DNA of 37,007 bases from Candidatus Aenigmatarchaeota archaeon (GCA_043814985.1 JBDRJK010000008.1:1-37007); one strand, 5' to 3'; positions 1,986 through 33,524 are shown, counted from the stretch's first letter. A program made the numbers and translations. The notes: a model not told the origin generated them from the sequence alone.

Positions 1986-2002
1986 ACAATATCACGGTGC
2001 CG

Positions 2003-2398
2003 CTAAGGGAGTGGTGGTGTTTGTTCTTTAAGAGGAGGCACGTTTTTGCACATGCAAACATCCCTGCACTGCTCCTCGTCGCTATTATAATAGCATTGGC
2101 ACATCATGTACAAGTTATCTTTTGCTTTCCCATCTTCTTCGGAACAATCCCCAATTCCAATGCCAGGATCCAGGATTCCGTCCATGTCAGCATCGAAATT
2201 GTCCATCTCAATCAGATTAACATCGCTGTCGCATTTCAAGAGAAGCTTTTTGCAATAATAAGTTCTTGCGCTTTCCAAACTCACTGTTTCACTAAAAGGG
2301 GACCATCCTGAGGAGTTCAGCGAAATCAGGCCGAACAAGACAATAACAGCTATTATAACCACTATTAAAACATTTATTGGAAGTTCAATACCCTTCAT
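2003..2398 (-). CDS. Class III signal peptide (pilin-like) protein, Cys-rich
   Basis: N-terminus MKG|IELPINVLIVVIIAVIVLFGL has a short basic leader, Gly cleavage site and hydrophobic helix, followed by a Cys-rich C-terminus. It lies directly upstream of the PA14 gene on the same strand. Confidence 0.7.
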   Translation of the reverse strand: MKGIELPINVLIVVIIAVIVLFGLISLNSSGWSPFSETVSLESARTYYCKKLLLKCDSDVNLIEMDNFDADMDGILDPGIGIGDCSEEDGKAKDNLYMMCQCYYNSDEEQCRDVCMCKNVPPLKEQTPPLP

Positions 2399-4272: not shown

Positions 4273-5279
4273 TTCAACCAACTTCCAAGCGACTTTTGCC
4301 TGTCCTCTGTCAGGCTCTTGACAACCTTCTCAATCCTGTCATGGGAGAAGTCATGCTCGTCCACCATGAACTTGAAAATCTTGTCAGGATTGACTTGCTT
4401 TGTTTCTATTTCAACATCATTGACAGGAGGATTGAGATAGAAATCATAAACCTTCTGAGCAGGAGTGTTGTAATCCCATTCAATCTTCTTCAGAACATTT
4501 TCCAGAGTCTTCTCCTTCTTGACCAAGCTAAGGGCTCTTTTAGGACCAATGCCCTTTATTCCAGGATTGTAATCGCTGCCAACTAGAATGCCAATTATTA
4601 CCAATTGCTTTCTGTTTATTCCAAGTTCTTTTAGAACGCTCTTCAACTCAATCAACTCAGGCTTTATCTCGACGTATATGTTCTGCCTGGGAAGCCTCTT
4701 CTTTCCTGTTATTGAAAGGTTCCTTATCAGTTTCGGTGTGTTGAACAATAGGCTGTCGCTGTCCTGGCTTGCAACAGAATATACCTGGCCTTTCTGGCAT
4801 AGATGAGCACACTGGGCTTCTCCTTCAGAAGGCGCCTGGACCCATTGAATTCCCATGTACTCCAGAAGTTTCTTCGATTCTTCTATCATCTCCCCTGTCA
4901 GTTTTGAGGACATCTGCGCATACTTCCTTGCCTCCTGCAGGTTTCCCAATGACAAAGCCTCCTGCCATTTCTTGTAGGACTCCTCCCTTATTTCCTTTCT
5001 CTCCTCAATTGTCATTGTCTTCAGGTCAGGCTTGTCGCCGTCAAACACCCAGACCAGATTAATATTGTTCTCCAACAGTTTTGCTGATCGATAGAAAAGA
5101 CCGCTCAGATGGCTTGTTATCCTTCCCTTAGAATCCTTCAGTGGAACTCCATCCCTCTGCCTGATTATGCTCAGGAACTGGTGCAACCACAAGAACGCAT
5201 CCACAGCTAATGTCTTTCCTGACAAATCCTTTAGCTCAATCTCATTCTTTGGCAGAATCTTTGAAATCTGAACTCCCAT
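4269..5279 (-). CDS. fen: Flap endonuclease 1
   Basis: MGVQI start, AVDA...QFLSIIRQRDG, EGEAQCA, SQDSD, GSDYNPGIKGIGPK, and a C-terminal PIP box QKSLGSWL. Confidence 0.97.
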   Translation of the reverse strand: MGVQISKILPKNEIELKDLSGKTLAVDAFLWLHQFLSIIRQRDGVPLKDSKGRITSHLSGLFYRSAKLLENNINLVWVFDGDKPDLKTMTIEERKEIREESYKKWQEALSLGNLQEARKYAQMSSKLTGEMIEESKKLLEYMGIQWVQAPSEGEAQCAHLCQKGQVYSVASQDSDSLLFNTPKLIRNLSITGKKRLPRQNIYVEIKPELIELKSVLKELGINRKQLVIIGILVGSDYNPGIKGIGPKRALSLVKKEKTLENVLKKIEWDYNTPAQKVYDFYLNPPVNDVEIETKQVNPDKIFKFMVDEHDFSHDRIEKVVKSLTEDRQKSLGSWLK

Positions 5280-5340
5280 AAGATAGAATTAGATTATAGA
5301 AGGTTATAAATTTTATATCCGAACAAATGAATAATCTATT

Positions 5341-5847
5341 ATGGTTTCCGAGAAAACAAAAAACATGATGCCCATATACATTGGTTTCTCAATCCAAATG
5401 ATAGGGGTAATAGCAATGTTCATTACCAAGAATTTTCCTCTTGGTCTAATCTCTTGCGCAGTAGGCATTTTCATAATGGTCATAGGGGCGTCGCGCAAAG
5501 TTGGAAATACAAATGTTTTCAGAAAATACTCCTACAAGAGGCCTGCATACTATACAGGCGATTATGCATTAAAGCTGTTTATTATTAGAAGCACTTTCAT
5601 TCTAATACCAATACTTCTCTTACTGGGAACAATCTCGCTACTCTTTTCATTAGGCATACTTACGCCCAGGGGAATATTGTTAATAGCCGGAATAAGGGAT
5701 AGTTCAAGTAACGGAGATACTGTCAATGAGCTTCTTAAACCAAGTTTCTCTACTCATTTCAACTACTTCACAGCATTGTTGTATTTTTCTGGAAGCGTGT
5801 TGCTAGCCATAATACGCGTTTGGTTGAGAAACAGGTGGAAGGTTTAG
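5341..5847 (+). CDS. Hypothetical membrane protein (about 4 TM helices)
   Basis: 168-aa ORF with four hydrophobic stretches, filling the gap between fen and the radical SAM gene. Confidence 0.6.
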   Translation: MVSEKTKNMMPIYIGFSIQMIGVIAMFITKNFPLGLISCAVGIFIMVIGASRKVGNTNVFRKYSYKRPAYYTGDYALKLFIIRSTFILIPILLLLGTISLLFSLGILTPRGILLIAGIRDSSSNGDTVNELLKPSFSTHFNYFTALLYFSGSVLLAIIRVWLRNRWKV

Positions 5848-7364
5848 TTGTCTCTCTTGTAGAAATCCTTCTCCAACTTCCTTCCAGTTCTCTTCTCCCA
5901 CTCTTCTATGGGTAAAGAAAACTCCTTCTGTATTTTATCTCTATACCACTGCGGGATAACATTGAAGGCGCAGAACGGGACTATTTTTCCATCAGGCTGA
6001 GCGTAGTGGATGCAGCACCTCTTTACCCTTTCAATGTCATAGTTGTACAGGTCCTGAAAGTGCATCATGCCGATGAAGAGGGACTTGTATTGCAGTTCTC
6101 TTAGTGAGCTGTAGTCCCCTGTTTTTAGAATATTATATAGTATGTTGGCGAGGTTCAAATCTTTTGGCTGCTTTTTCTCGTCAATAAAGCTATTTAGTTT
6201 TGACAGTATCTTCAAGCTCGTGTATACCTTGCCTGTGATTCCCTTGGCTTGCAATGACAGCTCGTCCAAAAATTTCAAAAAACCATCAACATCTAAAAAT
6301 CTTGTTATTGGAACTATCTTGTCCCCGTCCAAAAACATATAAGTGGCCATGCCGCAGGCAGGGTGGGCTGTTAATTCGAATCTGGGCCTGTTTGTCAATG
6401 CTTCAAGGAAGTGTGTTATTGGAGTAACGCTAGGAACTGGGTACCAGTCCTCCTTTCTAATATCTCCGTTTGTCTGCTCCTCTATTTTCTTGATGACATC
6501 AGGAATTGTTATCCTGAATTTTTTCCTGTCCGCCTTTGTTATCCTCCCCACTAATGAAACAGGCTGGAAGTTGATACCGCGCACAATGTCAATGTTCTTT
6601 ATCCCGAACCTAACAATATTTCCAACATCATGATCATTAACAGTGTTTATAACAGTAGGAACAAGGACAGCACCCATTTTAGCCTTCCTGAGATTCTCAA
6701 GTATCTTGTGCATCTCCCAATGGTTCTTGGGGTTTGTCTTTGCTGTTGTACCGTCATAGCTCAGGTACAGTGTGTTAACGCCCGCTTCCCTGACTTTCAT
6801 GGTGAACTCTGCGCTCCGTGATATATTGATTCCGTTAGTGTTAAGCTGGACATGCTTGTATCCCTCTTCCTTGGCTATCTTGATTATGTCGATTATATCT
6901 CTTCTGATGGTCGGCTCCCCGCCTGTTAATTGAACAGCACTTGCGCTAACAGGCTTTTCCTCTCTCATCTTCCTGAGCATCATCCTTATCTGTTCTAAGG
7001 ATGGCTCGTAAACATAACCCATTGCCTTGGCATAGAAAAAGCAGTAGAAGCATTGCAAATCGCATCGATTAGTGACAACTATGTTTCCTAATGCCGTGTG
7101 GGACTTGTGCATCTCACACAAACCGCAGTTCTGGGGACAGGGATTCTTCAATTCAACATTGGGATTCTCTATACCTTTTCCGTCATGGGCAAATTTCATA
7201 GCTTTCTGATACATCTCATAGTCCCCCCAGTAGACATCCTCGAATTTGCCGTGCTCTGGGCATTCCTTACTTATCAAGACCTTGTTGTCCCTTTCAAAAA
7301 TCTCTGCTGGAAGAATTTTCAGGCACTCTGGACAGAGCGATTGAGTATCCCTTATTTTGTTCAT
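5844..7364 (-). CDS. tes: Radical SAM enzyme, tetraether lipid synthase (Tes/GDGT-MAS, MJ0619-like)
   Basis: N-terminal TQSLCPEC...CPEHG metal site, CPQNCGLC auxiliary cluster motif, radical SAM CDLQCFYC, HPACG, and C-terminal CCIHY...PFC. About 506 aa. Confidence 0.8.
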   Translation of the reverse strand: MNKIRDTQSLCPECLKILPAEIFERDNKVLISKECPEHGKFEDVYWGDYEMYQKAMKFAHDGKGIENPNVELKNPCPQNCGLCEMHKSHTALGNIVVTNRCDLQCFYCFFYAKAMGYVYEPSLEQIRMMLRKMREEKPVSASAVQLTGGEPTIRRDIIDIIKIAKEEGYKHVQLNTNGINISRSAEFTMKVREAGVNTLYLSYDGTTAKTNPKNHWEMHKILENLRKAKMGAVLVPTVINTVNDHDVGNIVRFGIKNIDIVRGINFQPVSLVGRITKADRKKFRITIPDVIKKIEEQTNGDIRKEDWYPVPSVTPITHFLEALTNRPRFELTAHPACGMATYMFLDGDKIVPITRFLDVDGFLKFLDELSLQAKGITGKVYTSLKILSKLNSFIDEKKQPKDLNLANILYNILKTGDYSSLRELQYKSLFIGMMHFQDLYNYDIERVKRCCIHYAQPDGKIVPFCAFNVIPQWYRDKIQKEFSLPIEEWEKRTGRKLEKDFYKRDN

Positions 7365-19958: not shown

Positions 19959-21134
19959 ATGGGAGCCAACCAGGAAACCAGATTAAGTACAGATGCTTTT
20001 GATTGGAACAGGTATCCTGTTCTTGACACTTTGAGGAATGCAGCAAACATGTTTGTGAAGAATGTCGACGGCGAGGTCCAGATATGGGCTGCTAGCAGGG
20101 ATTGGTTCATGCATGAATATGGAAGGGACACTTTTATTTCTCTACCAGGCTTGTTGCTTGTCAATGGAAGATTTGATGAGGCTAAGAGCGTCTTCAGAAG
20201 ATTTGCAAAATTCGAGAGGAAGGGTCTGATTCCCAACACAATACAGAACAACAATGCTGAGTACAATTCTGCTGATGCGTCAATGTGGTTCTTCCACGCA
20301 TTGAAATCCTACCTGAGATATACAAGCGACGTTGAGTTCATCAAGGACATGCTGCCTGTAATGAGGAGGATAGTGGGCTCGTACAAGCACGGAACATCAT
20401 ATGAAAGGTATGGAAAAAAACAAATGGTTAAGATGGATAGTGATGGATTGATTATTAGCCCTGCCCAAGCCACATGGATGGATGCTGACTGCTTTGGCAA
20501 ATGCAAACCCTTTACTCCGAGGAACGGCAAGGTAGTTGAAATCAATGCATTATGGTATGACAACCTCAGGTTTCTGTCTATTCTGGACAAGGATTACATT
20601 CCTCTTACTGACCAAGTCAAGAAGTCGTTCAATAAAAAATTCTGGAACAAAGCTGGTTGTCTTTATGATGTGATAGAGGGTGACCCTCAAGGAAAGGCAA
20701 TAAGGCCCAACATGATTTTTGCTGTTCTTAGTGACCTGTTGTCAAAGGTAAAGCAGAGGGCAGTGGTCAAGAAAGTGACTGATGAACTGCTCACCCCAGG
20801 CGGATTGAGAACGCTTTCACCCAAGGATAAAAAATACAGAGGAACTTACGACACTTACTTGCCTGTTGAGGAAAAGGACTTGGCTTATCATCAGGGAACT
20901 GCATGGCCTTGGTTAATAGGAGCATATTGCGATGCCCTCAATGTCGTCGGTAAGGGAAAGATTATAAAGAAAATAATTGGACCGCTTGCCAAGTTCTGTG
21001 TTGAGAGTAAATACAAGTCATTGCCTGAGGTTTTTTCAGGCGATTCACCTTATGAGCCTGGCGGAACTACATCTCAGGCATGGAGCGTTGCAGAAGTTCT
21101 GAGAATTATTGTTGAGAATGGGATTGTTGGATAA
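19959..21134 (+). CDS. Amylo-alpha-1,6-glucosidase (glycogen debranching enzyme, catalytic domain only)
   Basis: YGRDTFISLPGL, GLIPN, YNSADASMWF, TWMDA, TPRNGKVVEINALWY, IRPN, YHQGTAWPWL, SQAWSVAE. Confidence 0.9.
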   Translation: MGANQETRLSTDAFDWNRYPVLDTLRNAANMFVKNVDGEVQIWAASRDWFMHEYGRDTFISLPGLLLVNGRFDEAKSVFRRFAKFERKGLIPNTIQNNNAEYNSADASMWFFHALKSYLRYTSDVEFIKDMLPVMRRIVGSYKHGTSYERYGKKQMVKMDSDGLIISPAQATWMDADCFGKCKPFTPRNGKVVEINALWYDNLRFLSILDKDYIPLTDQVKKSFNKKFWNKAGCLYDVIEGDPQGKAIRPNMIFAVLSDLLSKVKQRAVVKKVTDELLTPGGLRTLSPKDKKYRGTYDTYLPVEEKDLAYHQGTAWPWLIGAYCDALNVVGKGKIIKKIIGPLAKFCVESKYKSLPEVFSGDSPYEPGGTTSQAWSVAEVLRIIVENGIVG

Positions 21135-22728: not shown

Positions 22729-23760
22729 TCACATCATAGAAAAGAAGTCTGTTAGTTTCAAAAGATCCTTACTCAAAGTCCTGTTTTTCTCAACAACCTT
22801 CTCTAGCTTTACTGGAGCTATCTTTATTCCTTTAAGCACAACAGCATAGCCGAACTTTCCTTTTTTCACCAAGTCAACTGCAGCAATCCCCAAGCGGATT
22901 CCGAAGTTTATGTCGAATGCAACTGGCGACCCTCCTCTCTGGACATGACCAAGAACAACAGACCTTGTGGACTTGCCAGTTCTCTTTTCTATCTCCTTTG
23001 CCAGGGTCTCGGCTATTCCTCCGAGCCTCTCGTGGCCGAACTCGTCCTTCTCCTTGCTTACTGTTACTAAATCACCAATGCTCTTGGGCTTTGCTCCCTC
23101 TGCAACCGCAATCACAGTGTAGGTCTCTCCTTTCTTCTCTCTCTTCATTATTGTCCTGCAAACCGATTTTATGTCAAAGTCCTTTTCAGGAACAAGAATT
23201 ATGTGAGCTCCTCCAGCAAGGCCTGCCATCAATGTCAGCCAGCCTGCATGCCTTCCCATTATCTCTGCTATTAACACTCTGTCATGGGACTTGGCAGTTG
23301 TCTGCAACCTTGCTATTTCTTCTGCTGCTGTTGCAACTGCTGTCTGGAAACCTATGCAGTAATCAGTAGATGATAAATCATTGTCAATAGTTTTAGGAAC
23401 GCCAACCACATTGACACCAAGGTCATTAAGCTTCTTGGCTGCTCCCAAGGTGTCGTCCCCTCCTATGATGACCATGGCATCAATGTTGAGTTTCTTGAGG
23501 TTATCCATTGCTTTCTTTGTTTCTTCCTCTGACTTGAAGGGGTTCTTTCTGGATGTTCCCAGCAATGTGCCACCGTCCTGATAAATGTCCCTGACATTCT
23601 TCATGTCAAGAGGCATTGTCCTTCCATTGATCAAACCATCATAGCCATCAAGAAAACCTATTACTTCACACTTGTAATCAGCAGCTCTCTTTACAACTGC
23701 CTGTATAACAGCATTCAAACCAGGGCAGTCTCCGCCGCCTGTCATCACACCAATCTTCAT
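22729..23760 (-). CDS. pfkA: 6-phosphofructokinase, PFK-A family (D104/K124 signature, probably PPi-dependent)
   Basis: TGGGDCPGLNAVI, GGTLLGTSR, IGGDDT, VPKTIDND, EIMGRHAG, LGHVQRGG. Confidence 0.93.
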   Translation of the reverse strand: MKIGVMTGGGDCPGLNAVIQAVVKRAADYKCEVIGFLDGYDGLINGRTMPLDMKNVRDIYQDGGTLLGTSRKNPFKSEEETKKAMDNLKKLNIDAMVIIGGDDTLGAAKKLNDLGVNVVGVPKTIDNDLSSTDYCIGFQTAVATAAEEIARLQTTAKSHDRVLIAEIMGRHAGWLTLMAGLAGGAHIILVPEKDFDIKSVCRTIMKREKKGETYTVIAVAEGAKPKSIGDLVTVSKEKDEFGHERLGGIAETLAKEIEKRTGKSTRSVVLGHVQRGGSPVAFDINFGIRLGIAAVDLVKKGKFGYAVVLKGIKIAPVKLEKVVEKNRTLSKDLLKLTDFFSMM

Positions 23761-23829
23761 TAAAATCACTCTTAATGATTTAGTATTATGGGTATATAAT
23801 TTTTCATTATCTGGAAGATTGATAGAAAA

Positions 23830-24714
23830 CTAAAGCCCCAAAAATCTCATGGTGTTTTCTTCTGTCACTCTATATATTTCTTCTTCTGTTAAACCATCAA
23901 GCACTCCTTTCTCCTTTTCGTAGCTGCCGTTATTCAGGGAGCAGAAAGGCGCGTCAGAGCCCCATGTAACATTGTAAGGCGATATCTCCAGAAGCTTCTT
24001 CAGGACAGAGTTCGGGTTCTCATAGTCAGCCTCTATTTTGTCAATGGCCTTATCTTCCAAACTGCAGAGATATGAAAGAGGCGAGCAGTCAAAGAAGAAA
24101 TTCCTCAGCTTTGCTGCTTCATCAACAAACCTCTGGGAGAACATACCAAAATGCGCTGCTGCAATCCTTATTTCAGGATGTCTCTTTGCTATTTCAACAA
24201 GCTCCATAGGGTCCTCATATTCCTTATCCTTATAGTCTGGATGCCAGGTGTGTACTGTGAGGGAAAGGTCATTTTCCCTTATCATGTCTATCAGCCTTGG
24301 CTCTTCCAAGCTACTAATGGGCAACCTGTCTCTGGGACCGTGAAATTTCAAACCGTAAACGTTCTCTTCTTTCAGCCTTTTCTCCAGATAGCTCAGTGAT
24401 TCCTCTTTGTTCGGGATAACAGAAAGAAAGGGAATAAGACTTTTATCTTCATTTGAGGCAGACAAGATATAGTTATTTGCAAATTCATAATATGTCCGCA
24501 ATGCAAAAAGCTCTGTTTTTCCGTTCTTTAAACCCTTGAGCACTATCTCTGAGGAACTTGGAAAGGGGAAGACAACTGCCCTTTCCACCTTGTTCTTCTT
24601 CATTGTCCTCTTCAAATCTTCGTAAATTAAATCCGTGGGAACAATATCGCCAAATTCAACTTTGTCAATTAAATAATAGCTGTTTTTCCCCAAATGGACA
24701 TGAGCGTCTATCAT
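23830..24714 (-). CDS. Amidohydrolase family (TIM barrel) metal-dependent hydrolase
   Basis: IDAHVH, GLKFH, VHT, AAHFG, WGSDAP. Confidence 0.85.
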   Translation of the reverse strand: MIDAHVHLGKNSYYLIDKVEFGDIVPTDLIYEDLKRTMKKNKVERAVVFPFPSSSEIVLKGLKNGKTELFALRTYYEFANNYILSASNEDKSLIPFLSVIPNKEESLSYLEKRLKEENVYGLKFHGPRDRLPISSLEEPRLIDMIRENDLSLTVHTWHPDYKDKEYEDPMELVEIAKRHPEIRIAAAHFGMFSQRFVDEAAKLRNFFFDCSPLSYLCSLEDKAIDKIEADYENPNSVLKKLLEISPYNVTWGSDAPFCSLNNGSYEKEKGVLDGLTEEEIYRVTEENTMRFLGL

Positions 24715-24759
24715 GAATTCACTTGATAGGATTTGTGTGGAAAGCTTTTTATGGCTGTT

Positions 24760-25263
24760 CTAAGAAACAGCCGGTACTTCAACATCTTTTCTAAGGAAGT
24801 AGTTGGCAGCTATCTTGACGCCAATGTCTATCTTGCGGTTTCTCCCATCTATTGGCAAGAATATTTCCCATGACTTTTGATTATTCTCTGCAAGCTCTTG
24901 GGCTGGCACAAAAATAACGCCTCTCTGGAAGTCCGCTTTCTCAAAAAGCTTGTCAACATAAAAAGTCACAATCTCCAGTTCACTATCAGTGGTGCGACAC
25001 GGCAATGTTAATCTTTCAACCTTGCTCACGTCCCTCATCCTTACCTTTCTTCTGTTCCGAAGAGCTCTTCCCCTGGCACCAATAAAGCCAACCAAGTCGT
25101 TCGGGGATGTTTTTAGAGTATCATATAAAACCGGGTTCCTAACTTCGTCTGCACCCTGATAGGGAAGCTTGTAGGAACGGTTGAAGAAGCAGTATATTGC
25201 AGGTATCTCTATTTCATCTTCTTTAACATGCATTGCCAACTGGGCATTGTATATGCTGTTCAT
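24760..25263 (-). CDS. Hypothetical protein
   Basis: 167-aa ORF with no recognisable motif and a promoter-like element upstream. Confidence 0.6.
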   Translation of the reverse strand: MNSIYNAQLAMHVKEDEIEIPAIYCFFNRSYKLPYQGADEVRNPVLYDTLKTSPNDLVGFIGARGRALRNRRKVRMRDVSKVERLTLPCRTTDSELEIVTFYVDKLFEKADFQRGVIFVPAQELAENNQKSWEIFLPIDGRNRKIDIGVKIAANYFLRKDVEVPAVS

Positions 25264-25276
25264 GACAATCTTTAGT

Positions 25277-25307
25277 TAGTTGTTAAGAAAGCTTTAAGCG
25301 TGTTTCG
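25277..25307. repeat. 31-bp promoter-like repeat (28/31 identical to 26810-26840)
   Basis: tagttgttaagaaagctttaagcgtgtttcg vs tagttgagaagaaagctttaagcgtctttcg; each lies just upstream of a minus-strand orphan gene. Confidence 0.75.
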
Positions 25308-25341
25308 GCTGGAGGGGTTTAAATGCTTTTATGTTCTGTAA

Positions 25342-26016
25342 ATGTTTATGAAAGGCGAGCAGCTGACAGCAGACAGACTGGCAGACGCAATAGACATTTT
25401 GACAGCCGAAGGTCTAACACCAGATGTCAGTGTCAGGTATTTCACTTCTTCAAAGAATTTCAGGAAGTGCTCCATTCCGGATGAGAAGTTTGTATTTGCC
25501 AACCTCAAGGAACTTTCATTCAGGAATGTTGAGGACTTGGAGAGAAGGTACTCTGTCCAGCTTACAAGGGGCAACAACAGGGGCAATTACTGCATTGTAG
25601 ACGCTGAAAGCAAGAGCGAGAAGATCCCCGATTATCTTGATTATGACAACGGACTTCACAACAGAATATCCGCCTTCCTGCAGGGAAGAAGGGAGCCCTC
25701 CTTCGGAATGCTGGGCTATGCTGTTGCTGACATACAGAAGCCCGTGGGAACAAGAACAGCCCTTGAGCTGGAGGACCTGCTGGAGGAGAACGAGTTCGGG
25801 GCAATGGACGTGGTTTCCGCCTTCGAGAATTTGTCTGCAGAGGACATCAGGAACTCTAATCTGCCTCACGACCAGCTGATCAGGGTTGTCTCAGGGTTCA
25901 GGAATGACGGGAAGGAAGTGGCTGGAATATACTGGCATAATGTAGTCAAAAGGGAGATAATAGTAGACGCTCCCCCAATCCTTAGGAAAGAGATACTTGA
26001 AGTTCTTAGGAAGTGA
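25342..26016 (+). CDS. Hypothetical protein
   Basis: 224-aa ORF with host-like codon usage; no motif recognised. Confidence 0.7.
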   Translation: MFMKGEQLTADRLADAIDILTAEGLTPDVSVRYFTSSKNFRKCSIPDEKFVFANLKELSFRNVEDLERRYSVQLTRGNNRGNYCIVDAESKSEKIPDYLDYDNGLHNRISAFLQGRREPSFGMLGYAVADIQKPVGTRTALELEDLLEENEFGAMDVVSAFENLSAEDIRNSNLPHDQLIRVVSGFRNDGKEVAGIYWHNVVKREIIVDAPPILRKEILEVLRK

Positions 26017-26094
26017 TTTTTCTTTAAATGGTTTTCAGCAAGGCTTAAATGCCAAAAATACGAATAGAATAATAATAAAGAAGGAGATGATAAT

Positions 26095-26331
26095 ATGGCT
26101 ACAAAAAGAACATCCAGGCGAACAAAGAAAGACATCGTATGCTGCTCAATGAAAGACAACATGTACGGAAAAGAAAGCGGAGGTTGCCTTTATTTCTTGG
26201 GATTCATTGGCGCATTGATATACTACATAACCACTGCCCCGACCTTTTGGGACGCGGTTGTGGGATTCCTCAAGGCGATTGTATGGCCTGCTTTCCTTGT
26301 CTATGGGTCCATGATGGCATTGGGATTATAG
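26095..26331 (+). CDS. Small membrane protein (2 TM)
   Basis: GGCLYFLGFIGALIYYI...FW..VVGFLKAIVWPAFLVY; AAGGAG RBS upstream. Confidence 0.75.
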   Translation: MATKRTSRRTKKDIVCCSMKDNMYGKESGGCLYFLGFIGALIYYITTAPTFWDAVVGFLKAIVWPAFLVYGSMMALGL

Positions 26332-26410
26332 AAGCAAGCTGTTAGAAGTTAGTTTTTATTCTAGTTTTTTTATTTTGTTAGCATGAAGAATAAGCTAAGC
26401 CTTTAGAGTG

Positions 26411-26803
26411 CTATACAGAAACGGGTTTTGGTTTCCAATCTCTCAACTCGTCCAGCTCGTTGACAAAAAGCGGGAAGTTCCTGTTCGGAACATTCTCCAT
26501 GAGCTTTTCAATATTGCACTTGAACAGCTGCCTGTCAGTGTAAATCTCGTCAAGGTTAGGATTGATTGCCTGGGAGCTGTTCCCGCCACGAATTCTAGAA
26601 AACTCATCCTCTTTAACAAAATACGATGATTCGGAATGGAAAATTAATCTTATAACATCATAGGAGAATTTGCCGCCTAAAAATTTTCCGGCCTTAAACC
26701 AGAGCGGCTTTTCTTCGCACGAATCATTTAATATGATGCCTATTGTCTGGTATCTTGGAAGATTCCCCTCTATAGAAGCTTTGACAAAGTCTATTGGTTT
26801 CAT
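26411..26803 (-). CDS. Hypothetical protein
   Basis: 130-aa ORF downstream of the IMPase gene. Confidence 0.55.
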   Translation of the reverse strand: MKPIDFVKASIEGNLPRYQTIGIILNDSCEEKPLWFKAGKFLGGKFSYDVIRLIFHSESSYFVKEDEFSRIRGGNSSQAINPNLDEIYTDRQLFKCNIEKLMENVPNRNFPLFVNELDELRDWKPKPVSV

Positions 26804-26826
26804 ATTCTATAGTTGAGAAGAAAGCT

Positions 26827-27618
26827 TTAAGCGTCTTTCGACATGGTCTTCTTTACTATCTCGACCAGCTTGTCATGGATTAAACCGTTAGAAGCTATGC
26901 AGCCCTTTATTTCTCCATCATATCTCTGCTCGTTGCCGTACAAATCAGTGACTTTTCCACCAGCCTCCTCGACAATTATCTTTGAGGCAGCAATGTCATG
27001 GGAATATTTTGTCGGATTGATGGCTGCGAAAAGCTCGCCTGCGGCCACCAGGTAAGCTGAGTAGGCCACTGAACCCAAGTCAATGGGATATGCATCCTCG
27101 TCACAGAGGTTCTTGTACATTCTAGAGATATCAAAGGAGGCGCCCTTCCAGTAGCATACATAGATTAGGGCGTGCTTGAGATTTGGATTAGTTGAAACCT
27201 TGATTGGCTTATCGTTGAGGAAGGCGCCCTCGCCCTTTACAGCTGAGAACATCCTGTCCATGAAAGGGTCGTAGATTACACCTGCAATCGGTATTCCGTC
27301 CTCTAGATAGGCTAAAGAGAATACGCACATTGGTATGCCGTGCCTGAACATTGTGGTGCCGTCTATGGGGTCGCAGACCCAGAGCTTGCTGCTTTTCCTG
27401 GCCATGTTGCTTTGCTCCTCTGCCAGGACGTCATGCTCTGGAAACCTTTTCTTGACAGCCTCAATCACCATGCGGTTTATCATAATATCGGTCTTGGTCA
27501 CTTCTGTGTCGTCGGGCTTCAGCCAGCTCTCCGCGCCCAGCTTGAAGCTCTCGCTCATCATCCTGCCGGCCCTTTTCGCAAGCTCCACGGCGAAGCTCTT
27601 CTCCTCATTGTAAGCCAT
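26827..27618 (-). CDS. Inositol monophosphatase family protein (SuhB/FBPase-like)
   Basis: VTKTD, LAEE, WVCDPIDGT, LGS, HDIAA...VEEAGGKVTD. Confidence 0.92.
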   Translation of the reverse strand: MAYNEEKSFAVELAKRAGRMMSESFKLGAESWLKPDDTEVTKTDIMINRMVIEAVKKRFPEHDVLAEEQSNMARKSSKLWVCDPIDGTTMFRHGIPMCVFSLAYLEDGIPIAGVIYDPFMDRMFSAVKGEGAFLNDKPIKVSTNPNLKHALIYVCYWKGASFDISRMYKNLCDEDAYPIDLGSVAYSAYLVAAGELFAAINPTKYSHDIAASKIIVEEAGGKVTDLYGNEQRYDGEIKGCIASNGLIHDKLVEIVKKTMSKDA

Positions 27619-27766
27619 ACCAGAGATTTGGACTGAGAGAATAAAAGGGTGGTGGATTGGGAAGTGGGTTATTCTAAGCCTCGAGAGGGATGTACCAAAA
27701 TGGGTGAATCCCTAAAAGCCTTAAATTCTAGATTTTTACCACTTCTAGTGGTCAAATATTATGATT

Positions 27767-28030
27767 TTACTTGTCTTTTCTTAATGCCCCTTCTTTGATA
27801 AGTTTCATAAGTGCGTATATTTCTCCTGCTATTGGGGAATCAACTCTATCTTTTGGATTAACCGCCCAAGCTGGTTGAAAAGAATTGGAATAACTGCTAT
27901 AAACTATTTTTTCTTCGTGATGAACAAATTTTCCCTGACCTGGGCAGAAAGTATATTTGCCAGGATTTAAAATAGCTGCCTCGACACTATTATTAAACTC
28001 TTTCATCTTTTTTATAAACTCTTCACTCAT
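27767..28030 (-). CDS. Hypothetical protein, AT-rich
   Basis: 87-aa ORF flanked by repeated palindromic motifs. Confidence 0.55.
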   Translation of the reverse strand: MSEEFIKKMKEFNNSVEAAILNPGKYTFCPGQGKFVHHEEKIVYSSYSNSFQPAWAVNPKDRVDSPIAGEIYALMKLIKEGALRKDK

Positions 28031-28170
28031 TTACAACACCCCATTAAATCATAGAATATTAAACCTTAAATTAACCACTTTCAGTAGTCAACGAACTTTA
28101 TTTAGTAACAAGAGGCCTCGAGAGTGTTTTACAGAAATGGATAAAACCCCATTTGACTGGAAGGCTTTGC

Positions 28171-28315
28171 TTATACCATAGTGTTCTTGATTATCTCAAC
28201 AACTTGAAGTTCTCGCTTATCATCCACAACGTCAAGCTCCACGGCGAAGCTCTTCTCCTCATTGTAAGCCATATCAAACATTTGGACTGAGAGAATAAAA
28301 GGATGGTGGTGTTGG
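28171..28315 (-). pseudogene. Internally deleted duplicate of the inositol monophosphatase gene plus its upstream region
   Basis: 28233-28302 is 67/70 identical to 27579-27648, and 28203-28225 matches 27541-27563. The remnant ORF 28171-28272 reads MAYNEEKSFAVEL...VVEIIKNTMV*, joining the IMPase N-terminus to a C-terminus like LVEIVKKTM. Confidence 0.85.
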
Positions 28316-28382
28316 AGAAACGGGGAGTGTTTTTATTTAGTAACTATAACATATTTAATAATAGCTCATAAATAATTAATTA

Positions 28383-28634
28383 ATGTCAGACTATTGTCCT
28401 ATCTGCCAAAAAAGATTTAAGGACATATTAAAACATTTTTCATACTATCATGAAATCGGGGATATGGAACAATTAAAAAAAGAGGTCAAGTTAGCTGAAA
28501 GTGAAGAAAAAAGAAGAGAAGCATATGGAAAATTTATTAAAGAAATTAATCAAAAACTTGAGAAAAAAGAAATTGACATTAAAGAATGGAGAAGATTAAG
28601 AGAAGTATGGGAAAGGAAAAATCCTAAAACTTAG
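28383..28634 (+). CDS. C2H2 zinc-finger protein with charged helical tail
   Basis: YCPICQKRFKDILKHFSYYH. Confidence 0.75.
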   Translation: MSDYCPICQKRFKDILKHFSYYHEIGDMEQLKKEVKLAESEEKRREAYGKFIKEINQKLEKKEIDIKEWRRLREVWERKNPKT

Positions 28635-28655
28635 TTTTTATAAAACGAGTTGAAA

Positions 28656-29477
28656 ATGATGGATAAAATAAATAAAAGGCAATTTGGTAATATAAAATTA
28701 GAAGACATAGAATTAGATCCCCTAAATGTTAGAAAGGAAGGAGTTAGAATTGGACTTGAGGGCTTAAAAACGAGCATAGAAAAAATTGGATTAATTCACC
28801 CAATTATTGTAACAAGAAAAAAAGGTACTAAAAAATTTAAAGTGTTAGTGGGTCAGCGTCGTTTCACAGCATTTAAAGAATTAGATTACGATACTATACC
28901 AGCTATAATTATTAATGATATAGACAATACTTCTAAAAGACTAATTTCTTTTACAGAGAATATTAGTAGAAGCCGTTTACCCTACAATGATACTATTAAA
29001 GTTTGTGATGAATTGTTTAGAAATTATCGAGGACCAAGATCAACAAGATTAAAAAGAATATCTGAAGATGTGGGTCTTCCGTTACAAACGGTTGTTAATT
29101 ATTTATCTTATAGAATAGTACCAGAAGAAGTTAGAGATTTGGTTGATGGTGGTAAAATCGATCGATCACAGGCTTATAAACTTACTTCAGTTTTTTGGCC
29201 AAACTCTAAAAAAATTGTTAGAATAGCCAAACATATGGTTGGAATGACAAAACCAGAATGGGAAAATATACTCGATATAGGTTTGGAAGACAAAAATGCT
29301 CCTTTTGAAGAAATCATGGAAGAGTCAAAAAAACCGTCAAGAAAAATTACAGTTAAGATTAAAATTGAAAGAATTGATTTCGATAAATTAAAACAAATAA
29401 CAAGAGGTAGCAAAAATAAGATTGGTGTATCTGATTTCATTAGTGATATTTTAAAAGATTATCTTAAAGGCCGATGA
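28656..29477 (+). CDS. ParB/Spo0J-family protein (CTPase domain, HTH, C-terminal RHH-like segment)
   Basis: LKTSIEKIGLIHPIIV, VLVGQRRFTA (GxRR box), TENISR, HTH ISEDVGLPLQTVVNYL, and a C-terminal ITVKIKI...KLKQI...VSDFISDILKDYL. Confidence 0.88.
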   Translation: MMDKINKRQFGNIKLEDIELDPLNVRKEGVRIGLEGLKTSIEKIGLIHPIIVTRKKGTKKFKVLVGQRRFTAFKELDYDTIPAIIINDIDNTSKRLISFTENISRSRLPYNDTIKVCDELFRNYRGPRSTRLKRISEDVGLPLQTVVNYLSYRIVPEEVRDLVDGGKIDRSQAYKLTSVFWPNSKKIVRIAKHMVGMTKPEWENILDIGLEDKNAPFEEIMEESKKPSRKITVKIKIERIDFDKLKQITRGSKNKIGVSDFISDILKDYLKGR

Positions 29478-29480
29478 TGT

Positions 29481-30050
29481 ATGAAGAAAAAATTCGATGA
29501 AGATAAGGTACTGGCAATTCTATATTCCAACTTTTCTAGTAAAGGTAAACAAATTAATGATTGGATTTTTATAGCAAAAAAACTTAATGAGCTAAAAGAT
29601 TTCTATAAATCTGAAAAAAAAGTCGCTAAAAATTTAAGATTATCTTATGAAATGGTAAGATCTACAATAAAACTATTAGATTTACCAAAAATAGTCCAAC
29701 AGATGATTAAAAAAGGAGAAATATCTCAAGATCTTGGATGGAGATTGCTTGGTATTAAAAATAAAAAGGATCAAATAAAAGTTGCAAAGGCTATTGTAGA
29801 ACTTAGTGCGCATGATGCAAGGGATATGATAAGGTATGCCAAAAATAACCCCAGTCATTCGATTGAGAAACATATTAAAAGATTAAAAAAATCTAAAAAG
29901 AAAACACGAGAAATAAATGTAGTTGTATTAACTCTTGACGAAGCTACTTATAAATCCGTTAAGGAAATTTCTAAAGAAAATAAAACAGAACCAAATAAGA
30001 TGATTTCAAAAATAGTAGAAAATTGGATAAAAAGAAGGTACAAAAAATGA
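29481..30050 (+). CDS. ParB-like HTH protein lacking the N-terminal CTPase domain, with C-terminal RHH-like segment
   Basis: KKVAKNLRLSYEMVRSTIKLLDLPKIVQQMIKKGEIS matches the Spo0J HTH region; C-terminal VVVLTLDEATYKSVKEIS...MISKIVENWI. Confidence 0.75.
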   Translation: MKKKFDEDKVLAILYSNFSSKGKQINDWIFIAKKLNELKDFYKSEKKVAKNLRLSYEMVRSTIKLLDLPKIVQQMIKKGEISQDLGWRLLGIKNKKDQIKVAKAIVELSAHDARDMIRYAKNNPSHSIEKHIKRLKKSKKKTREINVVVLTLDEATYKSVKEISKENKTEPNKMISKIVENWIKRRYKK

Positions 30051-30751
30051 CACTTATAGTATCACTTGAGGGCAAAGATTTTATAGCAGTTGGTTCAGAT
30101 AGTGAAGGTAGTCGTGAGGATTCACATGGAACTCGTGTTGATAATATAGAAGCAGAAAAATTAATACAATTAACAAAATTCTCTTGTGCGTTAATAGCGG
30201 GCGATGCTGAAATAGGTACAGAACTAATTGAAGAGTTCAAATCTACTTTAAAAAATACTGACAAATGGAACTTAACTGATGTTGTTAAGAAATTTAGTAA
30301 ATTCTGTAAAAAAGAAATATCACATATTTCAGATGTTGTTTCACCAAGTGATATAGCATTCCCTTATATTATTTTTATATTAACAGGTTTAGATAAAAAA
30401 GGGAAGAAATTCATTCCAAAGATAAATGTATTGAGAAGTACTAGACTATTCTGTCCAGGAAGAGAAAAGGACAAATCCGCTAAAGGTAAACCAATGATAG
30501 CTTACTATATACTTGATAAATATTATGATAAAAATTTTTGTCAAGAAGATATGCTCTTTCTTATTGGAAAAGTCATATCCGAAACTATGAGAATAGATGG
30601 GGATGTTGGTGGTAAAATAAAAATGGCAATAATTGACAATAAAGGTTTTAGAAATATAAAAGATAGTGCTGTGGAGATTTATACAAAAGATAAAGAAATG
30701 TATAAGCTGGAAAAAGAAAATAAAGAATTAGAAAATATAATAAAGGAATAA
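30047..30751 (+). CDS. Proteasome beta-subunit-like Ntn hydrolase without propeptide
   Basis: The ATG at 30047 overlaps the upstream TGA. The mature N-terminus T1LIVSLEGKDFIAVGSD17S is followed by K37LIQL, IAGD, FILTG, AYYILDKYY and RIDGDVGGKIKMAII, tracing the beta-subunit pattern. Confidence 0.8.
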   Translation: MTLIVSLEGKDFIAVGSDSEGSREDSHGTRVDNIEAEKLIQLTKFSCALIAGDAEIGTELIEEFKSTLKNTDKWNLTDVVKKFSKFCKKEISHISDVVSPSDIAFPYIIFILTGLDKKGKKFIPKINVLRSTRLFCPGREKDKSAKGKPMIAYYILDKYYDKNFCQEDMLFLIGKVISETMRIDGDVGGKIKMAIIDNKGFRNIKDSAVEIYTKDKEMYKLEKENKELENIIKE

Positions 30752-30752
30752 G

Positions 30753-31721
30753 CTATTTTTTCCAAAACGTAACAAAATCGTGGTTTATTTTTAAATTTTT
30801 AGTTTCAACCAATTCGGCATATATTGATTTACCTCTTCTAATCTGACTCACTGAATTAGATGTTATTTTTATTGCTTGACCACAATCTTCTAAACCTATA
30901 TCTTCTGCTATATTAGCAATTTTTCTACTTAATGGAATAAATTTTCCTCTATAAATCATATCTCCTGTTAAAATGCAAATATATTTATTTTTCTTAAGGA
31001 CCCTCTTAGATTCTAATAAAATAGATTTTACTGATTCAAAAAAATCCTTTAAGCTTTGTCTAGATAAATCATTCTTATCTTTTGAATATTTAACCATTCT
31101 CCAGTATGGTGGGTGAAGAAAGACCATTCCGACCTTTTCGTTTTTCAATGGTATATTTACACTATTATTTTTAATTATGTCTTTGCGCTGAGGGTTAATA
31201 TCATAAGCAATACATTTTCTTTTTAAAACTTTACATACATCTATAGTCGTTCCTGACCCTGCCATGGCATCTAGTATTATATCTTTTTTATTTGTCAAAC
31301 GGAGTATACACTGTTCAATTATTTGTGTTGGAGCATTACCATAAAATTTTGGATCGCCTGCATAATTATCTCTTTTTCCTATATTCCAAACAGTATTTAA
31401 TAAAAGTCCTTTGTTGAGTTGTTTATTCAGATTTTCTATTTTCTTTTTCATCATTTTACTTCTTTTAACTGAAAATTCAGCTATGTCTATAATATTATTT
31501 TCGTATATTTTTTTTCTTTTTAGGGCCTTAATGATTTTTTCATTGAGTAAAGAATCATTCTTTTTTACTATATGTTTAAAGGCATCTAAGGGTATATCAT
31601 TTTTCAAAACAGCATCAATTATTTCATTAGGCATAGTTTTTATTTTATTATTTTCATACATTAAAAGTCTAAATTCTGTAATGTTCCTAATCTTTTCCAA
31701 TTGTTGTGTCTCCAAATTCAT
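30753..31721 (-). CDS. DNA methyltransferase (amino-MTase, HPPY motif) with N-terminal helical extension
   Basis: TVW...FYGNAPTQI, motif I LDAMAGSGTT, YDINP, motif IV FLHPPYW, ESKRVLK. Confidence 0.85.
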   Translation of the reverse strand: MNLETQQLEKIRNITEFRLLMYENNKIKTMPNEIIDAVLKNDIPLDAFKHIVKKNDSLLNEKIIKALKRKKIYENNIIDIAEFSVKRSKMMKKKIENLNKQLNKGLLLNTVWNIGKRDNYAGDPKFYGNAPTQIIEQCILRLTNKKDIILDAMAGSGTTIDVCKVLKRKCIAYDINPQRKDIIKNNSVNIPLKNEKVGMVFLHPPYWRMVKYSKDKNDLSRQSLKDFFESVKSILLESKRVLKKNKYICILTGDMIYRGKFIPLSRKIANIAEDIGLEDCGQAIKITSNSVSQIRRGKSIYAELVETKNLKINHDFVTFWKK

Positions 31722-31903
31722 TTTTTTTCACTCTCCAAAGATTCTACAATAAGAATCTTCCAGTTTTTCTTGAATTTTTCATAGAAATTTCTCAATGCAA
31801 TTGTTATAATACGTTTGTCTGTCCATCCAAAACGATTTGATATTTCTAGAAATTTTTTAGTATCTTCTTCATCAAAAACAATCGTTATTTTATTGTCTTT
31901 CAT
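31718..31903 (-). CDS. Ribbon-helix-helix (CopG-like) regulator
   Basis: KITIVFDEEDTKKFLEISNRFGWTDKRIITIALRNFYEK; ATGA overlap with the MTase. Confidence 0.7.
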   Translation of the reverse strand: MKDNKITIVFDEEDTKKFLEISNRFGWTDKRIITIALRNFYEKFKKNWKILIVESLESEKK

Positions 31904-31913
31904 TAATCATTAT

Positions 31914-31966
31914 TAGTATTATTACTATTTAAACTATTAATAGTATTTATCATAATCAATACTATT
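31914..31966. promoter_or_regulatory. Cluster of inverted repeats upstream of the RHH-MTase operon (candidate operator)
   Basis: tagta-N4-tacta (31914-31927), perfect palindrome actattaatagt (31933-31944), and aatagtatt-N10-aatactatt (31939-31966). Confidence 0.4.
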
Positions 31967-32035
31967 TTATAAAAACTCCATGAAGAATTATATCTAAAAT
32001 TAATTTCTCCATCACGCACTACCCCCACAACACAA

Positions 32036-32043
32036 TTATATAA
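32036..32043 (+). promoter_or_regulatory. TATA box of gapN (probably a leaderless transcript)
   Basis: TTATATAA ends about 20 nt before the ATG at 32064, with no SD motif. Confidence 0.55.
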
Positions 32044-32063
32044 GCCGTGACAATATTCTATAT

Positions 32064-33524
32064 ATGTCAAAACTTTTCGATTCAATAAGAAAGGGCAATG
32101 TCTACAAAATCCTAATCAACGGCAAGTGGGTAAAGTCCTCCACCAAGAAGACCTTCGAGATAAAGAACCCAGCAGACGGCTCAGTAATAGCGGAGGTGCA
32201 GAAAGCCTCGAAAATAGACGCTGAGAAAGCAATAAAGGCTGCCTTTGCCTCAAAGCAAAAGGCCAACATGCCTGCATTCGAGAGGTGCAAGGTTCTCAAC
32301 AGGTTAGCGAGTCTATTGAAGGAACATAAGGAGGAGTTCATAGACATTATCTGCAAGGAATCTGGAAAAACAAAAAGCCTTGCGGAGGGCGAGGTCAAGG
32401 CATCAATAGCTAGGCTGTATTTAGCAGCTGACGAAGCCAAGTCACTGAGGGGAGAAATAATAAACGCTGACGAAGTATCAAACAAGAGCGCCATGGCCTT
32501 GGTTGTGAGAAAACCGTTGGGAGTGATACTCTCAATAACTCCCTTTAATTATCCCTTGTTCACAGCAATAACCAAGATAGCCCCAGCAATAGCAGCTGGC
32601 AACTCTTTGGTTATCAAGCCTGCAAGCGATGACCCGATTTGCTTGCTAATGTTCGGAAAATTGCTGCAGGAAGCAGGCATGCCAGCCGGGACAGTTAATG
32701 TGTTAACTGGCTCAGGGCACGATATTGGGGACTTCATGGTTGCCCATCCTGACATTGACATGGTCTCGTTCACGGGAAGCAGCAACGCTGGCAAGCACCT
32801 GGCAGGAATTGCAGGCATGAAGAAGCTCCATCTGGAATTAGGAGGAAAGGCTCCGGCCATTGTCCTGGAAGATTGTGATTTTGACCTGGCTGTCAAAGAG
32901 GTTGTTTGCGGTTCAATAAAGTTCTCTGGCCAGAGATGCGATGCAATAAGCAGGGTCCTGGTTGTCGAACCAATAGCTGACAAGTTCGTTAATTCTGTTC
33001 TGGAGGAAGTCAAGAAGTGGAAGTTCGGGGACCCGAGAATGCCTGACACTGTTGTTGGACCATTGATAAGCGAATCAGCAGCAAAGTTTGTCGAGGAGCT
33101 TGTCAATGATGCTGTTCAAAAAGGAGCAAAGCTGCTGTACGGCGGCAAGAGGCACGACCACGGCTACTACGAGCCGACTGTCCTTGACAATGTCACCAGG
33201 GACATGAGGATTGCATGGGAGGAGACCTTCGGGCCTGTTGTCACGATTATCAGAGTTAAAGATTATGAAGAGGCAATAAAGATCGCGAACGATTCTGATT
33301 ACGGCCTGGACGCCTGCATATTCACGAACGACATTGACAAGGCAATTGACGCAGGCCAGAGAATAGAGGCTGGCTCTGTCCACGTAAACGCCCACCCGAC
33401 CCACGGAGTAGGACTGTTCCCGTTCGGAGGCGATGAGAGCTCTGGAATTGGAAGGCAAGGAATAAAGCACAGCGCAGAGGACATGACCAAATTACATACT
33501 ATTGTCCTTCATCCGAAGAAGTGA
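32064..33524 (+). CDS. gapN: Non-phosphorylating glyceraldehyde-3-phosphate dehydrogenase (ALDH superfamily)
   Basis: ITPFNYP, KPAS, SFTGS, LELGGK, SGQRCDAIS, EETFGP, PFGG; glycolytic gene context. Confidence 0.85.
   Translation: MSKLFDSIRKGNVYKILINGKWVKSSTKKTFEIKNPADGSVIAEVQKASKIDAEKAIKAAFASKQKANMPAFERCKVLNRLASLLKEHKEEFIDIICKESGKTKSLAEGEVKASIARLYLAADEAKSLRGEIINADEVSNKSAMALVVRKPLGVILSITPFNYPLFTAITKIAPAIAAGNSLVIKPASDDPICLLMFGKLLQEAGMPAGTVNVLTGSGHDIGDFMVAHPDIDMVSFTGSSNAGKHLAGIAGMKKLHLELGGKAPAIVLEDCDFDLAVKEVVCGSIKFSGQRCDAISRVLVVEPIADKFVNSVLEEVKKWKFGDPRMPDTVVGPLISESAAKFVEELVNDAVQKGAKLLYGGKRHDHGYYEPTVLDNVTRDMRIAWEETFGPVVTIIRVKDYEEAIKIANDSDYGLDACIFTNDIDKAIDAGQRIEAGSVHVNAHPTHGVGLFPFGGDESSGIGRQGIKHSAEDMTKLHTIVLHPKK

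Follow-up and report, generated by a model that had tools for sequence, protein, structure and literature searches.

A compact archaeal gene cassette combining two ParB-type proteins, a proteasome-like protease and an exchangeable DNA-modification gene

Contig JBDRJK010000008.1 of a Candidatus Aenigmatarchaeota archaeon (GCA_043814985.1), analysed here over its entire length of 37,007 nucleotides and referred to as the window, contains an AT-rich island with six genes in two convergent operons. The first operon encodes a small C2H2 finger protein, two ParB-type proteins (ParB1 and ParB2) and a proteasome-like protease, and the second encodes a putative ribbon-helix-helix (RHH) protein and a DNA methyltransferase (MTase). 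The question raised by this locus is whether these genes belong together as a system of their own and, if so, what such a system might do. The first operon was found to be the core of a cassette that recurs with the same gene order at other loci and is accompanied there by one DNA-modifying enzyme, the identity of which can change. We tentatively read this cassette as a mobile, modification-based module for self/non-self distinction (defence) or for addiction, a reading which we place somewhat nearer to doubtful than to probable.

The core operon and its proteins

The genes of the island (Table 1) are tightly packed. ParB1 and ParB2 are separated by 3 nt, the ParB2 stop and the protease start overlap as ATGA, the stops of the convergent protease and MTase genes lie 1 nt apart, and the RHH and MTase open reading frames (ORFs) share 4 nt by their coordinates. 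The protease ORF was called from a TTG at 30023, and its true start was placed at the ATG at 30047 because all ten database homologues begin with Met-Thr-Leu at this position. An earlier note on this DNA had described an AT-rich block of six genes in two convergent operons with these spacings, and the description is borne out by the ORFs, the GC profile and the junctions as read from the sequence. The same note reported that ParA, restriction nuclease, integrase and Rep genes are missing; accordingly, no integrase, transposase, ParA, Rep or nuclease family was found among the window ORFs scanned, which outside the island comprised ORFs of at least 90 aa.

Table 1. Features of the island and its borders in the window
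Feature	Coordinates	Strand	Basis or context
AT-rich island	28317..32063		Composition profile and flanking families; between inositol-monophosphatase-family gene and aldehyde dehydrogenase gene
C2H2 finger, 83 aa, charged helical tail	28383-28634	+	ORF
ParB1	28650-29477	+	ParB_N; start may be ATG at 28656
ParB2	29481-30050	+	HTH_ParB
Protease, 234 aa	30047-30751	+	PF00227
Methyltransferase, 322 aa	30753-31721	-	N6_N4_Mtase
Putative RHH protein, 61 aa	31718-31903	-	Weak TraY match
Intergenic region	31904..32063		Upstream of RHH-MTase operon and of aldehyde dehydrogenase gene
84-nt direct repeat, 92% identical	27579-27662 and 28233-28316		5' end of inositol-monophosphatase-family gene and upstream region

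ParB1 matches ParB_N in Pfam at 4.2e-15 and TIGR00180 with 64.5 bits (cut-off 58.45). Over residues 12-209 its profile matches the ParB/Noc structures 7bnk, 7ol9, 6sdk and 6t1f with E-values of 1e-24 to 1e-22, and KorB in the PDB is matched at 4e-10. Five positions are invariant in the 24 sequences aligned, namely G68, R70 and R71 in the stretch GQRR and E103 and N104 in ENISR, which we take to be the GxxR and ENxxR nucleotide-binding motifs of ParB proteins. The AlphaFold2 (AF2) model (pLDDT 86) consists of an alpha/beta N-domain followed by a helical domain at 112-226, and the extended segment and two helices predicted at its C-terminus would have an RHH-like topology when dimeric. ParB1 was thus assigned as a full-length ParB/Noc-like protein with an N-terminal nucleoside triphosphate (NTP)-binding domain and a contiguous helix-turn-helix (HTH). 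No ParA-type family was found in the island, in the scanned window ORFs or in the flanks of the related loci.

ParB2 matches HTH_ParB in Pfam at 1.4e-10 and its C-terminal residues 116-187 match the Arc-like repressor family phrog_582 at 7.6e-5. We assigned it as a paralogue of ParB1 that has no NTP-binding domain and consists of the ParB HTH and a C-terminal Arc/RHH-like domain. The pair was proposed earlier as a ParB and a CTPase-less ParB-HTH paralogue, with which these assignments agree. The finger protein gave C2H2 matches in Pfam that were all sub-threshold.

The protease matches the Proteasome family (PF00227) at 8e-7, above the Pfam cut-off. Its best sequence match in the PDB is the beta subunit of M. 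jannaschii (E-value 2.6e-12), and the 60 best PDB matches listed are 20S proteasome subunits. Positions M1, T2, D18 and K38 (numbering of the 234-aa protein) were found to be invariant in 14 sequences, and T2, D18 and K38 align with the catalytic-type residues Thr1, Asp17 and Lys33 of the M. jannaschii beta subunit 3h4p. The AF2 model (pLDDT 86.6, pTM 0.83) is predicted to adopt the alpha-beta-beta-alpha sandwich of 20S subunits, and its top Foldseek matches are all 20S beta subunits with E-values of about 1e-12 and target TM-scores of 0.7-0.83. The earlier designation as a proteasome-like protease stands on these matches and on the predicted fold; within that superfamily the enzyme was placed closest to archaeal and eukaryotic 20S beta subunits, HslV being absent among the 60 best PDB matches and the listed Foldseek matches. 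It has an extra C-terminal helix and no propeptide, all members of the family beginning with Met-Thr. HslV, Anbu and BPH are not known to have a propeptide either. The ordinary proteasome beta subunit of the same genome is encoded elsewhere, on another contig (C11). With the invariant motifs of ParB1 and the protease and the modelled 20S beta fold, the enzymes of the cassette look active.

Close homologues of the protease are rare, with ten found among 5.8 billion clusters. A profile search of 1.84 billion cluster representatives gave 65 clusters at E-values of 1e-30 or below, 216 at 1e-10 and 636 at 1e-3, and nearly all of these matches begin at profile position 1. The Protein Atlas returned only generic 'proteasome subunit domain' clusters. 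Prediction of a complex of ParB1, ParB2 and the protease gave a score of 0.00 in two runs in which controls were not included, a result that speaks neither way.

Related loci and the exchangeable modification gene

As a search with the single protein found no relative of the protease in genome contigs, a profile was used to collect related loci. Three were found in genome contigs, all from metagenome-assembled genomes (MAGs) titled Candidatus Bathyarchaeota, and 38 in metagenome contigs, while the profile found no locus in IMG/VR. Together with one relative genome and the window, these 41 fetched loci make up a set of 43 protease-bearing loci. The cassette occurs in only two of 371 genomes of the phylum of the window, the second belonging to the same family and another genus, and in none of the three same-genus genomes. 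Of 401 genomes sampled from the class to which the Bathyarchaeota-titled MAGs belong, two have it, both of them loci already in the set.

Hidden Markov models (HMMs) of five gene families built from the loci were then applied in a six-frame search, presence being counted only where the contig was long enough. In 35 of 38 testable loci the gene immediately preceding the protease is ParB2 (missing in L032, L033 and L036), ParB1 is present in 25 of 29 (missing in L026, L032, L036 and L039) and the finger in 18 of 27 (missing in L023-L027, L032 and L036-L038). A gene of the PAPS_reduct family was found on either side of the operon in 17 of 19 loci, the two without it being L026 and the window. Three pairs of loci are near-identical in DNA (L003/L041, L026/L039 and L032/L033); when one of each pair is dropped the counts become 33/35 for ParB2 and 25/28 for ParB1, and those for the finger and the PAPS_reduct gene stay the same. 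The ParB2 and protease genes are no more than 13 nt apart in all 30 loci compared and overlap by 4 nt in 21 of them, and in the same number of loci (30/30) the protease start codon, ATG in 27, is followed by Thr-Leu. The gene order is kept across loci at protein identities of 25-60%. Co-occurrence in other genomes had been set beforehand as the test of the earlier proposal, and it was observed for the series finger, ParB, ParB-HTH and protease.

Some loci depart from this arrangement. Two copies look decayed: L026 (6072-7003, with its near-duplicate L039) keeps a ParB2 fragment, the protease and only a 66-aa remnant of the PAPS_reduct gene, and L036 (7992-9086) keeps the C-terminal half of the protease and an intact PAPS_reduct gene amid three IS240-type transposases and beside a portal-like gene. 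A divergent branch of the protease occurs without ParB genes in L031 (457-1304), L035 (316-1204) and L032 (2062-2760, with the near-duplicate L033). Behind the protease, L031 and L035 share a small conserved ORF (56-70 aa) that overlaps the end of the protease gene.

The window MTase matches N6_N4_Mtase at 4.8e-23 in two stretches of permuted order, with the SAM-binding motif I (DAMAGSGTT) ahead of HPPY, an unusual variant of the (D/N/S)PPY-type motif IV. A possible relationship of its N-terminus to the ParB HTH was rejected (hhalign probability 3%). No cognate restriction endonuclease was found beside it in the island. The only other cassette of this type, L013, carries an MTase which is 56% identical to that of the window and occupies the same convergent slot, 3 nt away from the stop of the protease; a gene with an Mrr_cat restriction-endonuclease domain (1196-2167, plus strand) is divergent from it. 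A third relative of the ParB genes of the window, a truncated one, was found in L040. The 61-aa protein encoded before the window MTase has a TraY (RHH) match of 0.005 and no Pfam match, and was taken as a putative RHH protein from its sequence pattern. No homologue of its gene was found in the other loci. A second DNA methyltransferase with N6_N4_Mtase and D12-class matches is present at 3172-4281 on the minus strand of the window, where it has host-like GC content and adjoins a FEN1/XPG gene; it shares one BLAST cluster with the MTase of the island.

In most loci the fifth gene is instead the PAPS_reduct-family gene, which encodes a PP-loop enzyme. It lies upstream on the same strand in nine loci and convergent downstream in eight, in the latter case with, as a rule, no more than tens of nucleotides between its stop and that of the protease. 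Among the PADLOC models, SspD aligns over almost its entire length with the short forms (243-277 aa), at 1e-29 to 2e-35, and BrxP with the long forms (408-504 aa), at about 1e-35; matches to DndC are weaker. SspD and BrxP are enzymes of DNA phosphorothioation. In NCBIfam the nearest models are the 'hypothetical protein' entries PRK13795, PRK08557 and PRK08576, and the short forms are far from CysH. The PP-loop region is kept in the alignment, and the short forms also keep the cysteine motifs SGCxFCPF and PCGxECM, the cysteines of which are probably of the Fe-S type. The long forms have SGGKDS and a Cys-rich N-terminal extension and occur in loci without a separate finger gene (L023, L024, L025, L027, L037 and L038), which hints that the role of the finger may be fused into the modifier there. 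The PP-loop protein of L037 ends in a MazE/AbrB-like domain. In the window itself the HMM census found no PP-loop gene of the SspD/DndC/BrxP type.

The modifier is therefore an exchangeable part of the cassette, an SspD/BrxP-like enzyme being usual and the MTase a minority substitute in the window and L013. The proposal that the RHH and MTase genes belong to the system was correct for the MTase to the extent that L013 has one in the same slot; the usual fifth gene is the SspD/BrxP-like one, and the RHH gene was not seen in any other locus.

These observations would also fit a cargo that serves DNA modification and has no restriction or killing arm. In such a cargo the ParB pair would activate the modifier or target it on double-stranded DNA, the mark would shield the DNA of a mobile element or host from other restriction systems or tune gene expression, and the protease would only mature or turn over cassette proteins. 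The modifier is indeed rarely missing and is the only part that can be exchanged, the cassette has no nuclease, and ParB1 matches the PADLOC and PHROG models of ParB_N-MTase fusions. ParB homologues have moreover been shown or proposed to be partners of DNA modifiers, as in PMC13229309 and for DpdB and DndB. However, an arrangement of this kind gives no reason why a catalytically intact protease should be the most tightly coupled and most conserved partner, and stand-alone copies among housekeeping genes would need some selfish or beneficial effect to persist. We consider it rather unlikely.

Mobility is evident from the comparison of loci at the DNA level. Similarity starts and stops at the cassette borders and the flanks vary by locus; L001, for example, matches L002 over 3432-6540 where the cassette of L001 occupies 3402-6526. 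The cassette moves horizontally as a unit and its distribution is very sporadic. In 14 of the 43 loci DDE transposases (IS240 with SWIM, or DDE_Tnp_1) are found beside it, and tyrosine recombinases (integrases) adjoin it in L001 and L009. Other neighbours include a Type I restriction-modification system (L003), an MmeI-type enzyme (L014), a 976-aa Eco57I/MmeI-like enzyme (L058), Mrr_cat proteins (L013, and L026 where the domain is fused to an Rpb5 domain) and HerA/TraG-like ATPases (L006). The rest are housekeeping genes, among them those for CdvA, ribosomal protein S2, an Obg-like GTPase, Cdc48 and a polyprenyl synthase.

A second alternative is a regulatory or maintenance module of integrated mobile elements. 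Here a KorB-like clamp with an HTH/RHH partner would silence genes or hold DNA, by analogy to KorB and KorA, the protease would cut a repressor on a signal in the manner of ImmA acting on ImmR, and the modifier would be a passenger. The match of ParB1 to KorB besides ParB and Noc in the PDB, the RHH-like C-terminal domains predicted in both ParBs and the overlap of the protease gene with ParB2 are all compatible with it, as are the copies that adjoin integrases, HerA/TraG-like ATPases or the portal gene. Yet the cassette brings along no ParA, replication or integrase gene, and because the similarity ends at its borders and many copies sit between housekeeping genes, it is not a piece of a single larger family of elements. 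With 17 of 19 loci having it, the modifier is also too regular for a passenger. This alternative appears quite unlikely.

The island and its surroundings

The window is the whole of contig C8 in a genome of 0.8 Mb that is rated 91% complete. GC content is 0.26-0.30 across 28001-32000 and 0.40-0.50 in both flanks, the genome as a whole being at about 40%, and the island is the longest stretch below 31% GC in all 21 contigs (808 kb). Its two flanks form a sugar-metabolism cluster, with genes for a glycogen debranching enzyme, a class II aldolase, a phosphofructokinase and the inositol monophosphatase (IMPase)-family protein on one side and, on the other, the aldehyde dehydrogenase (ALDH) gene followed by that for phosphoglucomutase. 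The island is absent beside the ALDH gene in two same-genus genomes, where this gene directly adjoins homologues of window 19959-21134 (G012) or 22729-23769 (G011). Because ALDH adjoins upstream genes directly in both, window 23770-32063 was regarded as a variable region. It exceeds the AT-rich island, since 23770-26803 is also missing beside ALDH in these genomes; this segment, located between the phosphofructokinase and IMPase-family genes, holds four ORFs (167, 224, 78 and 130 aa) without a Pfam family.

Contigs from three public runs belonging to two studies were compared with 26500-33500; one of these runs may be the source of the assembly itself. They cover the island without differences. 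The left junction is bridged by a run contig at 28060-28381 and the right junction by two, at 31136-32433 and 30713-32331, and no joint without the island was reported among these contigs over the region compared.

The 84-nt direct repeat (Table 1) has only two copies in the genome, the second of which abuts the left edge of the island. A third copy was not found at the right edge, where the score of 20 compares with a mean of 19 and a maximum of 29 for shuffled sequence. The repeat looks att-like, though the right edge has no copy of it, and beyond the repeat a weaker similarity runs on into the coding part of the IMPase-family gene. No tRNA genes were found in the window. The two copies bracket a segment of 570 bp with an 87-aa ORF (27767-28030, minus strand) that belongs to no family. 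All three runs hold a variant of this segment at 27797-28070, with about 20 differences in 274 nt and unrelated sequence on either side; as the flanks of the variant are unrelated, there is a related copy in some other organism or context. An AT-rich imperfect palindrome (inverted repeat, 31921-31956) was observed in the 160 nt that separate the RHH-MTase operon from the ALDH gene, and may be an operator for the RHH protein.

PADLOC 2.0 names no system that covers the cassette. From the window it yields generic MTase_II only, the MTase being the protein that matches these models, and for L003 it gave no match for the finger, ParB2 and protease. A literature search found no description of this gene set and no paper linking ParB, PAPS reductase and proteasome. 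The gene combination is absent from the databases and literature searched, in keeping with the earlier remark that no described system with this combination was known to its author. A chance juxtaposition of genes, or a piece of a known provirus, plasmid or catalogued system, could be imagined for an island that has no integrase, a one-sided repeat and an RHH gene seen in the window only. Against it stand the gene order kept across 43 loci, the lack of an IMG/VR match to the protease profile and the failure to find the cassette in PADLOC or in a paper, and we regard it as highly improbable.

Comparison with known systems and possible roles

Each part of the cassette has counterparts in described systems. 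In the SspABCD-SspE phosphorothioation systems the N-terminal domain of SspE is presumably ParB-like. The usual fifth gene of the cassette aligns with SspD over almost the whole model and, more weakly, with DndC of the DndABCDE phosphorothioation systems; the ParB-superfamily protein DndB accompanies the modifier in Dnd systems, as passages of PMC10853773 describe. The cassette differs from both in that its ParB is of the canonical ParB/Noc type and not of the DGQHR or DUF262 type, in the addition of a proteasome-like protease and a second ParB, and, for the window copy, in having a methyltransferase.

The cassette and BREX are alike in that both exist in methyltransferase and PAPS-reductase versions, and the long PP-loop forms match BrxP. 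BREX type 1 has the PglX methyltransferase. BREX type 4 has the PAPS reductase BrxP according to passages of PMC12839542. The cassette, on the other hand, is far smaller, has no PglZ, BrxC, BrxA/B or BrxL and has other partners.

A ParB homologue encoded beside a DNA-modifying enzyme is also a feature of two further cases. The phage 5mYOX thymine dioxygenase needs a ParB homologue as activator (PMC13229309, 2026 PNAS), and DpdB is a ParB homologue that acts as required partner of the DNA modifier DpdA (passages of PMC12839542). Neither includes a protease, a second ParB or a finger, and the 5mYOX-type ParBs are described as having no obvious DNA-binding domain, whereas ParB1 keeps its HTH. A 2026 preprint on nucleoid protein (NAP)-based defence presents, in the portion concerned, clusters that pair a nucleoid protein with a PAPS reductase, along with Arc and ParBc proteins; the theme is related, and that portion of the preprint names no protease.

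With the ParB/Spo0J, Noc and KorB clamps ParB1 shares an N-domain with GxRR and ENxxR and the HTH that follows it. It is unlike them in its predicted RHH-like C-terminus, which stands instead of the usual dimerisation domain, in having no ParA or parS found with it, and in being always paired with a paralogue that has no NTP-binding domain. The protease shares the 20S beta fold and the residues Thr1/Asp17/Lys33 with proteasome beta subunits and their prokaryotic homologues, among them HslV, Anbu, BPH and connectase. Fuchs, Alva and Lupas (2021; PMC8665760) describe 22 new proteasome homologue families, including WPH and a family of 17 sequences termed 'archaeal homolog with coiled coil' (ACC). 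The C-terminal helix of the cassette protease recalls ACC, a likeness by description and not by sequence. The words ParB, operon and PAPS are all absent from the main text of that paper. The cassette protease differs from the named homologues in being fixed in a ParB operon and appears to be a small family separate from them.

We infer the mechanism and biological role of the cassette from these comparisons, and the following scheme is offered as a possible one. The core operon supplies the finger, ParB1, ParB2 and a translationally coupled, propeptide-less threonine hydrolase of the proteasome-beta type, and it is joined to one DNA-modifying enzyme, which here is an N6/N4 methyltransferase with its own small putative RHH regulator. 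The modifying enzyme would mark resident DNA. The ParB pair and the finger would load on or scan DNA and report its state, or would activate the modifier. The protease would then be a switch or effector that cuts the DNA-binding proteins of the cassette or a target of the host or invader. Behaviour like that of defence or addiction modules is suggested because the cassette is a stand-alone unit of 3-4 kb among housekeeping genes, often near transposases and sometimes near restriction genes. A module based on modification is favoured because mark-reading systems show this kind of swap, here one between an SspD/BrxP-like enzyme and a methyltransferase. The ParB homologues that serve DNA-modifying enzymes as required partners are precedents for it.

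Several observations weigh against this reading. The cassette holds no nuclease or recognised effector other than the protease, restriction-type genes adjoin it in only four or five loci, and many of its neighbours are housekeeping genes. No cysteine desulfurase, SspB/SspC, DndD/DndE, PglZ/BrxC or restriction partner was found with Pfam among 35 + 141 + 12 neighbouring proteins, and phosphorothioation by the cassette alone is doubtful because the other Ssp/Dnd parts are absent from these flanks. In 18 loci no common parS-like palindrome was obvious upstream of the finger gene; a parS could lie elsewhere. The protease can exist apart from the ParBs, as the four loci of the divergent branch (three without the duplicate) carry it with no ParB gene. 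Finally, the census is conditional on the protease as bait, and many of the loci, drawn from a few metagenome series that are related, cannot count as independent. The most specific form of the proposal, in which a CTP-dependent ParB clamp with its paralogue and the finger reads a phosphorothioate-type or methyl mark and gates a proteasome-like threonine protease effector as a new archaeal immune or addiction system, is in our view unlikely.

The cassette bears on several fields. The settings in which ParB clamps are known are the segregation of chromosomes and plasmids, nucleoid occlusion and silencing of the KorB type; in the cassette a ParB of canonical appearance belongs to a fixed operon together with an NTP-domain-less paralogue and a protease and without a ParA. 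Prokaryotic proteasome homologues are, to our knowledge, mostly orphans with no known function; the strict gene context provides this family with a testable hypothesis and with candidate substrates in ParB1, ParB2 and the finger. The exchange of modifiers in one slot parallels BREX types 4 and 1 and suggests a logic of modification reading. We know of few defence or addiction modules in Bathyarchaeia and in archaea with small genomes, and at 3-4 kb the cassette is compact enough to be cloned whole. If a mark-reading clamp does gate the protease, neither a proteasome-family enzyme nor a canonical ParB clamp would have been known in such a use before.

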